NCBI GenBank assembly: GCA_027592785.1
Contig: JAQCLD010000003.1
Span: forward strand, 96 to 64,095
Origin: Acidobacteriota bacterium
Lineage (GTDB): Bacteria; Acidobacteriota; Terriglobia; Bryobacterales; UBA6623
Direction of reading: 5' to 3'
DNA: 64,000 nt
Under the pieces are notes generated by a model, which did not search any database, had not been told where the DNA came from, and worked only from the letters and a program-made list of their open reading frames with translations. Position numbers and translations under genes: made by a program. Shown here piece after piece: positions 35,408 through 37,695 of the stretch (within the stretch, counting starts at the first letter, position 1; each line of letters starts with the position of its first letter).

Positions 35408-36697
35408 CTAGGGGCGCACCGCGATGGTCACGTCGTCCCGGCTTGTCACTCCGCCCTGTTCGATGACGACCGGCACGGCGTCTCCCGGTACGGCCCCGAA
35501 CGGGATGCGAATGTTGATCTGATACAGCGCGACGAACTGTGGCGTCAGGCCGGCGAACAACACCTGCGCTTCGGCGTCGCCCACGAAGACTTTCACCGGA
35601 ATCACCACGGGACGCAACGCGTCGAGACTGCTGTCACCAGTGATGCCCGCGGGATTGGTCGGCCCGAGTCCGTTGGCAAACAAGGTCACCACCTCGCCTA
35701 GCTTCGCCGGCTGCGCATTCGGCACGGAGCCTGCAGGCTGCGGCGTGGAGCCGTCGATTACGTCTTGGCTGCCGTCGGCGGTCTTGATGTTTAACCCGGC
35801 TGCCCGACCAGGTCCAAAGTCGAACGTAAACAGTGCGGGAGAGACAATTGCCAGGGGCGCTGGGACCGGATCGCTGATCTGCTCGGCTTCGCCTTCGGGC
35901 CGGTACGCAACGCGAACCTGGGCCTGCCCCAGCGGAACGTTCCAAGGAACCTGTGCGTTGATCTGGCCGCCGAAGATGCCGCCGTCAAGCGCTTGTCCGC
36001 CAACGAAGAACAACGGCGACTCAAGTTCGCCGAACAGCAGCGAGTAGTCGCCCAATTCGGTCGGCAGCGGCACCTGGGCGGCGCCTTGAGTGATCGTCAC
36101 GATGCCGCTCTCGGTTAAGCGGATGCCCAGGTCTTGACCAAACACGGACACGATCGAGCCCGGCGCGATCGGACGGCTTGGATCAAAGCTCGCGCCGTTG
36201 ATGATGCCGCCCTGCGAGATCGAAGGACGTCTTGGGCCGCTGAACGTTGCCGCTTTCGACGGCGCCGACGGGCCGTCCGAGCTGAGAGTCGATACGCGGT
36301 AGGAATACTCGATGCCTGGCTCCAGCGTCTCGTCTACGTAGGAGCTGGCCGGACCGTCAAGAACGGCAATTTGTTTCCAGACACCCAATTCGCCTTCTCG
36401 GCGTTCAATTACATACCCTTCGCCGACCAGGCTTGGTTCCCAGATGATGCGGGCCGAGGTGTCGGAGAGACGCGTCACTTCCACTCCCGCCGGCGGGGGC
36501 AGCAGAGACAGGGGAATCGCTGCGGTCATGTTGTCTTGCTCGTCGTAGTGATAGGCGACGCCGCCGCCTTGCGCATAGGCGGCACGGACCAAGCGGCCTA
36601 CTTCGTCATACGAGTAGCTTTGGGCCGCAGCGACGGCAGGCAAGGCCAGCAGCGCAAGAGCCAGGAACGTGTTGCGGGTCATGAGCTTTTTCAACAT
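35408..36697 (-). CDS. Secreted protein: YD-repeat pair + fibronectin-III + TIGR03437-like (Solibacter C-terminal) domain
   Basis: 429 aa ORF whose ATG is 2 nt after the Rhs stop. Signal peptide ALALLALPAVAAAQ. YD motifs YSYDEVGRLV and YHYDEQDNM. FN3-like EVTRLSDTSARIIWEP...YSYRVSTL. The C-terminal domain runs IINGASFDPSRPIAPGSIVSVFGQDLG ... FAGLTPQFVALYQINIRIP. Confidence 0.8.
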   Translation of the reverse strand: MLKKLMTRNTFLALALLALPAVAAAQSYSYDEVGRLVRAAYAQGGGVAYHYDEQDNMTAAIPLSLLPPPAGVEVTRLSDTSARIIWEPSLVGEGYVIERREGELGVWKQIAVLDGPASSYVDETLEPGIEYSYRVSTLSSDGPSAPSKAATFSGPRRPSISQGGIINGASFDPSRPIAPGSIVSVFGQDLGIRLTESGIVTITQGAAQVPLPTELGDYSLLFGELESPLFFVGGQALDGGIFGGQINAQVPWNVPLGQAQVRVAYRPEGEAEQISDPVPAPLAIVSPALFTFDFGPGRAAGLNIKTADGSQDVIDGSTPQPAGSVPNAQPAKLGEVVTLFANGLGPTNPAGITGDSSLDALRPVVIPVKVFVGDAEAQVLFAGLTPQFVALYQINIRIPFGAVPGDAVPVVIEQGGVTSRDDVTIAVRP

Positions 36698-36699
36698 CG

Positions 36700-37695
36700 T
36701 TAAAACTCCGAGAGCGGGCTGTTGGGATTGTTGGGCAAGGGCGTACCCGTCAGCAAATGGAAGGATTGATAGAGCTTCCAGTGAACGAACTCGCCATAAA
36801 CGCCGCGATTGCCCGCATTAATTTCGTCTCGCGAGGCGCCGAGTACGGCCGCCGCGCCCTGCGGCCGACTGGGCGGCGGCGAGCCGGAATCGCCCGTGAC
36901 GAATCCGAAGAGTCCCGCCTCGGCTAACCCGACAGCGAGGTCGATCGGAAGGCCTCGAGCGATGGCCGAATTGCGGGCAGCCTTCTGAGCCGCACCCGCC
37001 GCGGCGCTCTTCCCGGTAATCGCCGGAAAGATGGTCCGTCCGCCAAGATCCCTCTTGGGGACTAGGAGCTGCAACTCGCCCGCGGGCGTCGAGATCTTGC
37101 GAATCGACTTGCTGACCGAACCTTTGACAAGCCCTCTCGCGGCGCCGCCGCTTGCGCCGCGCCCGAGTCCTCTGGCCACCGCCTGGCCGCCCTTGCCGCC
37201 AAACGGGATCGCCCCGAAAATGGCTCCGGCTGCCACCTCCTGGCCGAACTCGCCGGCGTCAAAACCGCCCTGCTGAGCGCCTGTGGCGATGTCGATGCCT
37301 TGACCGCTAGCGTTGCCCAGAGCGGCGCCGACGGCCCCGGCAGCAGCGCCGCCGGCGATCAACGCGGCTGGCCCACAGACCCCGGCACAAAGCCCGACTA
37401 AGCCTCCCGTGACCGCGCCGCCGACCGCCGACCCAATGATGTCCCCGGCTGTGATTCGCTCTCCCTTGACCGCCTTCACCGTGACGGTCACGGCGACGCT
37501 GACGACTGCCCCGACCGCGGCGCCGATGCCGGCGGCGATGAGATTGAGCAACTCTCCGGTCGGGTCGTTGAAGCTGACCGGGTTGTTCCCCGCATAGGCG
37601 TAGCGATTCAGCGATGCGGGGTCGGTGATGTCGCCGATGTGGTCGTCCTTGCTGAGGAATTGCTTGAGTTGCGGCGCGTACCAGCGGAAGCGCAT
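36700..37695 (-). CDS. Rhs core end plus C-terminal toxin-tip fragment (ORF as tracked; probably not an independent gene)
   Basis: 331 aa. It begins inside the Rhs core (RFRWYAPQLKQFLSKDD...NRYAYAGNNPVSFNDPTGE). A glycine-zipper hydrophobic region follows, and then about 130 aa with no recognisable motif. Confidence 0.7.
   Translation of the reverse strand: MRFRWYAPQLKQFLSKDDHIGDITDPASLNRYAYAGNNPVSFNDPTGELLNLIAAGIGAAVGAVVSVAVTVTVKAVKGERITAGDIIGSAVGGAVTGGLVGLCAGVCGPAALIAGGAAAGAVGAALGNASGQGIDIATGAQQGGFDAGEFGQEVAAGAIFGAIPFGGKGGQAVARGLGRGASGGAARGLVKGSVSKSIRKISTPAGELQLLVPKRDLGGRTIFPAITGKSAAAGAAQKAARNSAIARGLPIDLAVGLAEAGLFGFVTGDSGSPPPSRPQGAAAVLGASRDEINAGNRGVYGEFVHWKLYQSFHLLTGTPLPNNPNSPLSEF

Follow-up and report, generated by a model that had tools for sequence, protein, structure and literature searches.

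What is the role of a large secreted protein encoded where the immunity gene of an Rhs toxin would be expected? The question is raised by a 64,000-nt stretch of the genome of an Acidobacteriota bacterium (contig JAQCLD010000003.1), referred to below as the window. Here, the open reading frame (ORF) 35408-36697(-) directly follows an Rhs gene and encodes a protein of 429 aa. In the following, this product is called the partner, and the protein of the gene directly upstream is called Rhs. Comparison across genomes showed that the partner gene belongs to a conserved cassette of two genes, in which it forms the obligate second member. The combined results point to an undescribed two-protein Rhs system rather than to an ordinary toxin-immunity pair.

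Linkage of the partner gene and the Rhs gene

As the initial annotation had described, the two genes are separated by 2 nt on the minus strand (...GAG TTT TAA CG ATG TTG...), the Rhs stop codon occupying positions 36702-36700 and the partner ATG positions 36697-36695. On the other side, 27 nt lie between the partner stop codon and the ATG of a sulfatase gene at 35380. The absence of any small ORF between the Rhs stop codon and the sulfatase gene was likewise confirmed, since all remaining ORFs of at least 30 aa in 35381-36699 overlap the 429-aa coding sequence in other frames. The partner gene is considered real because approximately 55 full-length orthologs of the same architecture exist (43–91% identity) and because the ratio of non-synonymous to synonymous substitution rates (dN/dS) was 0.064 in comparison with the 91%-identical ortholog from locus L006. 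At the ortholog junctions, the two genes lie -1 to 60 nt apart, and sites of the GGAGG or GGAAAGG type precede the ATG. A scan of the region 35200-41800, which includes the Rhs 3' end, revealed no sigma-70-like promoter site and terminator-like sites at background level only, a type of scan that is not informative for Acidobacteria.

The linkage was analyzed from both sides. On the partner side, the family alignment was compared with one genome per species, resulting in 80 loci in which the upstream Rhs was then sought using tblastn. On the Rhs side, metagenomes were searched with an alignment of the core end and the C-terminal domain (tip), resulting in 24 loci; generic Rhs-core patterns dominated among them. 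All loci are metagenome-assembled and carry the labels Bryobacterales, Bryobacteraceae, Solibacteraceae, Terriglobia, or Acidobacteriota. At every one of the 20 distinct places whose upstream DNA was readable (the window, L001, L003, L005-L010, L012, L013, L015, L016, L086, L088, L101, L113-L115, and one JGI place without DNA), a full-length partner gene was found -1 to 60 nt behind an orthologous Rhs gene with a Sec signal. It had been proposed to check in other genomes whether this tip always occurs with this downstream gene, and the pairing held in each of these 20 places. According to tblastn, the Rhs cores upstream of the full-length partner are 39–88% identical. Three orthologs located on long contigs directly follow an Rhs gene of the same architecture (1520–1563 aa) among unrelated flanking genes, and four further locus look-ups showed the same arrangement. 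Among the Rhs-side loci, the tip is present in 4 of 24, all with the partner downstream (tip match by tblastn in L086, L087, and L101; L088 was identified by its orthologous core end). The partner was found at none of the 20 Rhs loci with generic cores and other tips that served as negative controls. In addition, no Rhs gene was detected within up to 10 kb of the paralogs that contain only the C-terminal domain of the partner, TIGR03437 (0 of 69 loci).

The flanking genes differ at every cassette locus, and an all-against-all comparison of ORFs of at least 40 aa in 12 loci revealed no third conserved gene. The recurrent ORF clusters in this comparison all fell within the two cassette genes, where they used a different frame or the opposite strand. 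A hidden overlapping immunity ORF was considered and rejected: the recurrent alternative-frame ORFs occur only in conserved coding DNA of close relatives, and dN/dS in the main frame is below 0.11. The initial annotation had named two observations that would speak against the pairing. No conserved small immunity ORF was found in or around the pair at the 12 compared loci, and no gene of the 429-aa type was found apart from this Rhs family; for this reason, the partner is taken to be the true cognate of this Rhs.

The cassette was found only in Bryobacterales, Solibacteraceae, and Terriglobia (Acidobacteriota). One metagenome-assembled genome (MFD05684.bin.1.401) carries two diverged whole cassettes, L007 and L008, in which the partner is 63% and 55% identical to that of the window and the Rhs core is 66% and 44% identical, respectively. 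Transposase genes (rve, DDE_3, DDE_Tnp_1) flank some of the cassettes (L003, 1-4400 and 15400-18250; L113, 8433-9017). Since transposases flank some copies and the flanking genes differ everywhere, the cassette sits in variable regions and may be mobile.

Structure of the two proteins

The architecture proposed earlier for the 429-aa protein, namely a signal peptide, two YD motifs, an FN3 module, and a Solibacter-type C-terminal domain, was supported by Pfam, NCBIfam, and AlphaFold2 analyses (Table 1). The N-terminal sequence (MLKKLMTRNTFLALALLALPAVAAA↓QSYSYD) has the form of a predicted Sec signal peptide with a basic n-region, a hydrophobic core, and an AxA site. The signal-peptide region is just 18% identical among orthologs, while the boundary A-x-A↓Q(S/T)YxYD is conserved in the 33 partner orthologs of the family alignment. 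The RHS_repeat match at residues 30-60 (E 4.9e-5) is above the Pfam cut-off, and the YD hairpins contain the invariant residues Q26, Y30, D31, R35, G44, Y49, D52, and N56. A sequence-profile search of the PDB matched these hairpins with the Rhs cores of S. bongori Rhs and Tse5; they also match many repeats of the cognate Rhs. The FN3 domain (PF00041) scores 31 bits versus a cut-off of 25, has titin and fibronectin FN3 domains as PDB matches, and forms a beta-sandwich in the model. The TIGR03437 match (165.4 bits versus a cut-off of 29.05) is C-terminal and ends at residue 428 of 429.

The AlphaFold2 model of the partner, based on the 33-sequence alignment, has a pLDDT of 92 and consists of a lone helix (residues 2-22), four strands (residues 27-63, pLDDT ~94), the FN3 sandwich, and two further beta-sandwiches. 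The TIGR03437 part modelled alone (pLDDT 96.6, pTM 0.91) appears to be a rigid tandem. Fold searches of the PDB with the full partner and with the TIGR03437 domain returned only generic FN3, Ig, and plexin-IPT tandems and no functional analogue. According to the model, the partner is an all-beta rod of FN3/Ig domains with a free four-stranded YD sheet at its head, without an enzyme- or chaperone-like match. Conservation within the partner is highest in the second Ig domain (mean pairwise identity 63.5%) and in the YD hairpins (60%). Between distant orthologs, the identity is 45–56% for the partner, 39–44% for the Rhs shell, and 28–38% for the tip, unless the latter is only partly alignable; judging from these alignments, the partner is more conserved than the tip.

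Three structural interpretations of the partner were rejected. No chaperone is present among the 50 top-ranked matches listed for the TIGR03437 domain model, which speaks against a PapD-like periplasmic chaperone. An analogue of TcA is ruled out by the size (429 aa) and the all-beta fold of Ig/FN3 tandems. As for a teneurin-type FN-plug, the FN3 domain is canonical (84 positions) and lacks a plug insertion, and Rhs has a DUF6531 region of its own. A search of the accessible literature for TIGR03437, Soli_cterm, and Rhs accessory proteins with FN3 found nothing relevant, nor did it find a description of the architecture signal peptide-two YD hairpins-FN3-TIGR03437 as an obligate companion of Rhs.

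Rhs, when its frame is read through an in-frame stop codon that is considered below, comprises a signal peptide, DUF6531, a proprotein-convertase P-domain, 14 RHS repeats, a core ending in NDPTGE, and the 283-aa tip. The repeats are recognized by PF05593 in 14 stretches (E 3e-97) and by TIGR01643 (E 6.4e-81). Judging from the YD-repeat shell and the Rhs-associated core, the gene encodes a genuine Rhs cocoon protein. Its aspartyl protease has a catalytic Arg and two catalytic Asp residues (R4, D17, and D44 in the numbering of the 331-aa ORF) that, like P45 and G47, are invariant in 11 orthologs, and release of the tip inside the shell is therefore expected. The Rhs signal peptide is predicted to be of the Sec type in all orthologs. 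Signal peptides of the AxA↓Q form are predicted on both cassette proteins in all orthologs; in the window, both predicted cuts precede Gln (Rhs, ..AEA↓QITG, 41308-41370; partner, ..AAA↓QSYSYD, 36623-36697, minus strand). No PAAR or other domain related to type VI secretion systems (T6SS) was found in Rhs by Pfam, which returned only DUF6531, P_proprotein, and RHS. No secretion-system genes were found among the genes called within ~12 kb in the window, the genomes not having been searched as wholes.

The tip of the window contains 38% Gly+Ala and seven GxxxGxxxG motifs. Its hydrophobic segments (Kyte-Doolittle value >1.4) comprise tip residues 1-26, 37-60, and 60-80 and start right after DPxG. 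All readable tips are homologous and of one type across loci (mean pairwise identity 36%). They share a hydrophobic Gly/Ala-rich helix directly after DPxG (..GAAVGAVVGVAV..), a second and a third hydrophobic segment (..AGDIIGSAVGGAVTGGLVGLCAGVCGP..) followed by a variable basic middle, and an end of the form ..YGEFxHWxxY....LPxNNPNxxLxxF-COOH, in which the last residue is aromatic (Phe or Tyr) in all copies. The last ~46 residues are more conserved than the remaining tip; this motif may serve to bind the partner, or may act as a signal for release or insertion.

Pfam found no match for the tip even at E 10. A word-indexed search gave 2 matches, as Gly/Ala-rich sequence swamps the index, and HMMER was used instead. 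The exhaustive HMMER search of 1.84 billion representative proteins identified 48 relatives, nearly all of which are C-termini of ~1500-aa proteins or fragments thereof; they belong only to this Rhs family. Some longer tip-bearing relatives contain additional N-terminal Laminin_G_3 (lectin-like) or transglutaminase-core domains; the longer relatives are P0138 (2066 aa), P0168 (2016 aa), and P0146 (1770 aa, with an N-terminal extension lacking a Pfam match). In the profile search of the PDB, the best match was SGS1 (8fjp, E 6.5e-5), then SGS4, with a weaker match to BiTLP of Bacillus inaquosorum (9pt5, E 0.02). The alignments with SGS1, SGS4, and BiTLP extend past the cleavage site into hydrophobic helices. 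Taken together, the tip is best read as a membrane-inserting or membrane-permeabilising cargo of one conserved type. Its sequences give no indication of the hypervariability that marks polymorphic toxins. The premise of the initial annotation, a typical Rhs toxin for which a small immunity gene is due, is at odds with the single conserved tip, the Sec signal peptide, and the premature stop codon in the window.

The C-terminal module of the partner is also found elsewhere. TIGR03437 ends no more than 2 residues from the protein C-terminus in 71 of 78 complete matches. Of the paralogs, roughly half are stand-alone, with the signal peptide and the domain making up 262–311 aa, and the others carry varied N-terminal domains. 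The closest paralogs of the C-terminal half of the partner are stand-alone and directly follow a gene for a ~620-aa Wzy_C(+TPR) membrane protein (3 of 3 look-ups), in surroundings that include GT4 glycosyltransferases, a MurJ-type flippase, and Bac_transf. According to tblastn, a Wzy_C gene lies immediately upstream at 30 of the 69 paralog loci and at none of the Rhs-linked loci. The spacing of the Wzy_C(+TPR)-TIGR03437 pairs is ~100–150 nt (L017-L085, 30 of 69; L110-L112; for example, L110, 3874-5862 and 6001-6909). This arrangement suggests that an O-antigen-ligase/PglL-like enzyme has TIGR03437 proteins as its substrates or partners. The position of the closest paralogs behind Wzy_C+TPR genes in polysaccharide clusters ties the module to surface-polysaccharide biology and to the surface glycan layer, where it would be glycan-bearing or glycan-binding. 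The combination of YD hairpins, FN3, and Rhs linkage occurs only in the partner subfamily of TIGR03437.

The genes within ~12 kb of the cassette in the window encode a GT87 glycosyltransferase, M16 peptidases, a sulfatase, a GMC oxidoreductase, and MacB/FtsX-type permeases. The GT87-family gene (41499-42761(+)) is divergent, its distance being 29 nt to the point where the long Rhs ORF ends (41469) and ~130 nt to the likely ATG (41370). The two large MacB/FtsX-type permeases (28662-31127(-) and 46783-49368(-)) are typical of Acidobacteria. The GT87 and permease genes are not conserved beside the cassette elsewhere.

Table 1. Features of the two-gene cassette in the window.
Feature	Position	Strand	Basis or remarks
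Partner gene	35408..36697	-	429 aa + stop; ATG start; YD, FN3, TIGR03437 domains
TIGR03437 (Soli_cterm), two Ig/IPT-like beta-sandwiches, residues 165-428	35414..36205	-	NCBIfam E 1.6e-48
Canonical FN3, residues 68-151	36245..36496	-	PF00041 E 2.9e-7, profile positions 2-82 of 84
Two Rhs-type YD beta-hairpins, residues 26-63, mature N-terminus	36509..36622	-	Pfam RHS_repeat at 30-60
Partner signal peptide, residues 1-25, predicted cut AAA↓QS	36623..36697	-	Read from sequence; modelled helix 2-22
Gene junction TAA-CG-ATG	36695..36702	-	GGAG 10-13 nt before partner ATG
Conserved tip end ..NAGNRGVYGEFVHWKLYQSF..LPNNPNSPLSEF-COOH	36703..36840	-	47% identity vs 27% mid-tip
Rhs tip, 283 aa, putative glycine-zipper, transmembrane-like cargo	36703..37551	-	Composition, hydropathy, C-termini of relatives
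Rhs-associated core end after the stop, including DPTGE cleavage motif (37552-37566)	37552..37896	-	TIGR03696 E 1.2e-11
In-frame TAA in the Rhs gene (Glu codon in orthologs)	37897..37899	-	Comparison with orthologs
Rhs N-terminal 1156 codons	37900..41370	-	Signal peptide MPRYSIIPLLVLLSFAPLAEA↓QITG, DUF6531, P_proprotein, 14 RHS repeats

Possible roles of the partner

The role that we favour for the partner, with roughly even confidence, is that of a co-exported docking, anchoring, or targeting subunit, which would not be a classical small immunity protein. The first gene would produce a Sec-exported Rhs cocoon (signal peptide, DUF6531, P-domain, YD shell, and aspartyl-protease core), whose cleaved C-terminal cargo, a single glycine-zipper membrane-inserting domain, would be stored in the shell as in mosquito SGS1. 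The product of the second gene would be a Sec-exported rod with two YD hairpins at the mature N-terminus, followed by FN3 and the rigid tandem-Ig TIGR03437 module. The two proteins would meet outside the cytoplasm, where the partner would bind Rhs, most plausibly via the YD hairpins, either by beta-sheet pairing with the shell or through binding to the conserved tail motif. The TIGR03437 end would then hold the loaded cocoon at the surface glycan layer of the producer or bind the target surface. In this way, adhesion or anchor domains, which in teneurin-like and SGS proteins are present in cis, would be contributed in trans by the partner (PMC6425310, PMC13018210). The initial annotation had left three options, namely extracytoplasmic immunity, a co-secreted partner or adaptor, and a toxin directed at something that the producer lacks. 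Based on the YD hairpins, the rod fold, the conservation, and the link to surface polysaccharides, the evidence leans toward the partner or adaptor and leaves immunity the less probable choice.

Several points weigh against such a subunit. The docking mode and the anchoring role are both things that we infer, and the Wzy_C link concerns the TIGR03437 paralogs and not the partner itself. Among the longer tip-bearing relatives, no natural Rhs-partner fusion was found (no FN3/TIGR03437), and there is no evident outer-membrane export route among the neighbours within ~12 kb. The partner gene also occupies the usual place of the immunity genes of Rhs and teneurin-like proteins, the latter of which are encoded downstream of their toxins (PMC13018210). 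No other immunity candidate is conserved at the 12 compared loci. Finally, the tail of BiTLP is hydrophobic and inhibits E. coli only with a signal peptide, the cells becoming permeable to propidium iodide (PMC13018210); a tail of this type is thus toxic from the periplasmic side, where the partner would be.

These last points lead to a possible, though less probable, alternative, according to which the partner acts outside the cytoplasm as an immunity protein or holdase. In the periplasm, it would attach to the hydrophobic tip or to the conserved motif at the C-terminus of the tip, either before the tip is enclosed while the exported Rhs folds or on tips coming from siblings, and prevent insertion into the membrane of the producer itself. 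The free YD sheet would then mimic the inner wall of the cocoon that holds the helices; in SGS1, the predicted transmembrane helices after the protease site are located inside the Rhs/YD shell on hydrophobic patches of its wall (PMC9935623). Such a function is consistent with the directly downstream position and tight linkage of a gene that co-occurs with this tip type and no other, with the lack of another conserved candidate, and with the requirement of the BiTLP tail for direction to the periplasm in order to kill. It is also known that proteins protecting from surface-acting toxins can be secreted (PMC3482391). However, a protein of 429 aa with three Ig-type domains is far above the size needed, and Zhang et al. 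did not find immunoglobulin domains among immunity proteins as of 2012 (PMC3482391). The partner evolves more slowly than the tip, which is the opposite of the usual pattern, and the non-polymorphic tip gives no sign of a toxin-immunity arms race. In addition, a soluble rod is unlikely to block a membrane-embedded glycine zipper, and the C-terminal module is common to dozens of unrelated secreted proteins.

A further alternative, which we consider rather unlikely, concerns the window alone: its cassette may be a decaying relic in which a real nonsense codon truncates Rhs before the core and tip and leaves the partner functionless in this genome. The Rhs frame is split by a TAA at 37897-37899 into a 1190-codon ORF (37897..41469) and the last 331 codons, so that the ORF ending 2 nt before the partner ATG represents these last 331 Rhs codons only. 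The codon at this site is GAA in L006 and L007 and GAG in L001, i.e., Glu in all three, and the window differs by one G-to-T change. The NCBI protein set accordingly contains only the post-stop fragment (P0121, 392 aa). Disruptions are seen in other assemblies as well: the Rhs of L113 (2327-6996) is split into 508 and 1048 aa, the Rhs tail of L003 (~9600-9993) is out of frame, and the partner of L006 has two 1-nt insertions (~10190-10230). Many of these assemblies are long-read metagenome-assembled genomes, and errors are a plausible cause of the disruptions. Compared with L006, dN/dS in the window was 0.067 for the core end, 0.094 for the tip, and 0.108 for the shell; together with the value of the partner given above, this shows strong purifying selection throughout the cassette. 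Since the post-stop values are as low as those of the shell and the partner, inactivation of Rhs, if any, would be very recent, and the TAA stems either from a nonsense mutation of very recent date or from an error in the assembly; a consensus error in the metagenome assembly is equally possible. A relic in this genome would have no bearing on the function of the family at large. The dS values in the same comparison were lower for the core end (0.34) and tip (0.47) than for the shell (0.64) and partner (0.71), which may reflect Gly/Ala codon bias or an extra nucleic-acid constraint.

The last alternative, an independent secreted TIGR03437 protein that lies beside Rhs by chance in this genome only, could be considered because TIGR03437 is a large family of secreted paralogs here, mostly unrelated to Rhs, but it is refuted by the synteny data, as the YD-FN3-TIGR03437 protein stands behind this Rhs family in every one of the distinct places, in otherwise unrelated neighbourhoods and at the short gap given above, with no promoter-like site in the scanned region (within the limits of that scan) and with YD hairpins as the hallmark of the Rhs-linked subfamily alone.

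Comparison with known systems

Like the classical Rhs/RhsI pairs (Tse5; S. bongori Rhs, PDB 8cp6 and 8qjd), the cassette encodes a YD shell with a DPxG core and a C-terminal cargo and has an adjoining downstream gene. Unlike them, its Rhs has a Sec signal peptide, no PAAR or T6SS domain according to Pfam, and no secretion genes called within ~12 kb. It also has one conserved tip type instead of hypervariable tips. In place of a small variable immunity gene, the only conserved downstream gene encodes a large exported multi-Ig protein (421–469 aa) with YD repeats of its own. In the domains and neighbourhoods examined, nothing identifies Rhs as a T6SS effector, the ortholog neighbourhoods being unrelated and the genomes not having been searched as wholes.

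The best PDB profile matches of the Rhs protein are SGS1 and SGS4 (PDB 8fjp and 9on3; PMC9935623), which have an Rhs/YD shell and an Arg-Asp-Asp site followed by Gly/Ala-rich predicted transmembrane helices. In the cassette Rhs, predicted transmembrane helices likewise stand right after the aspartyl-protease site, according to the Kyte-Doolittle analysis and the alignments with 8fjp and 9on3. SGS1 differs in being a single eukaryotic protein of 3364 aa that has a Tox-SGS tail as well as receptor domains in cis and is not accompanied by a partner gene; beyond the core, the likeness to SGS1 is one of composition and architecture and not demonstrated homology. The teneurin-like proteins of the BiTLP type (PDB 9pt5; PMC13018210) similarly have an exported YD shell, a hydrophobic C-terminal fragment, and a gene directly downstream. 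They are defined by an FN-plug, an NHL propeller, and a YD shell, whereas Pfam finds no NHL or propeller match in Rhs. In addition, they have highly polymorphic tails, small diverse downstream genes, and adhesion domains in cis. By resemblance, the Rhs cargo may work like the cargoes of SGS1 and BiTLP.

As for the partner, a parallel is provided by MafA of Neisseria, a conserved, secreted, non-polymorphic accessory protein that is always encoded beside the toxin gene and has been proposed to anchor MafB toxins at the surface (PMC3482391). MafA is an upstream lipoprotein of unrelated sequence, in contrast to the partner, and MafB is a non-Rhs toxin with polymorphic tips and separate immunity genes. 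The Tc (ABC) toxins are also multi-protein systems, in which the Rhs cocoon TcB-TcC needs TcA for targeting and delivery and in which the YD-repeat sheets of the cocoon come from two different chains (PMC6425310). They differ from the cassette in that TcA is a 2500-aa pore-forming pentamer, whereas the partner is an Ig rod of 429 aa; Pfam detected neither a beta-propeller gate nor a domain resembling TcA. Finally, the C-terminal 265 residues of the partner are a bona fide C-terminal member of the TIGR03437 paralogs of Bryobacterales/Solibacterales. The nearest of these paralogs are stand-alone and Wzy_C+TPR-linked, while the partner is Rhs-linked and carries YD hairpins and FN3.

We tentatively propose a T6SS-independent two-component delivery, in which a Sec-exported cocoon with a membrane-inserting glycine-zipper cargo would be displayed or aimed by a YD-headed Ig rod, the latter docking into the cocoon through beta-sheet pairing and attaching by the glycan-associated TIGR03437 module. 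Such a system would in effect be a minimal counterpart, assembled in trans, of the Tc toxins or of the teneurin-like proteins. Its targets might be other microbes or eukaryotic grazers rather than kin, which would explain why there is one conserved type of cargo and why a classical immunity gene is lacking.

The route by which non-T6SS Rhs cocoons reach their targets in diderm bacteria, and the way they are opened there, are largely obscure, and the cassette offers a compact two-gene case. Its cargo appears to be a bacterial counterpart of the helices inside mosquito SGS1, with a dedicated exported partner always present. Should immunity be its role, the partner would stand out as an extracytoplasmic immunity protein of the Ig type and of unusually large size. 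If it is an anchoring or targeting subunit, it would represent a new class of Rhs accessory proteins and offer a first approach to the function of TIGR03437, a large family in soil Acidobacteria.

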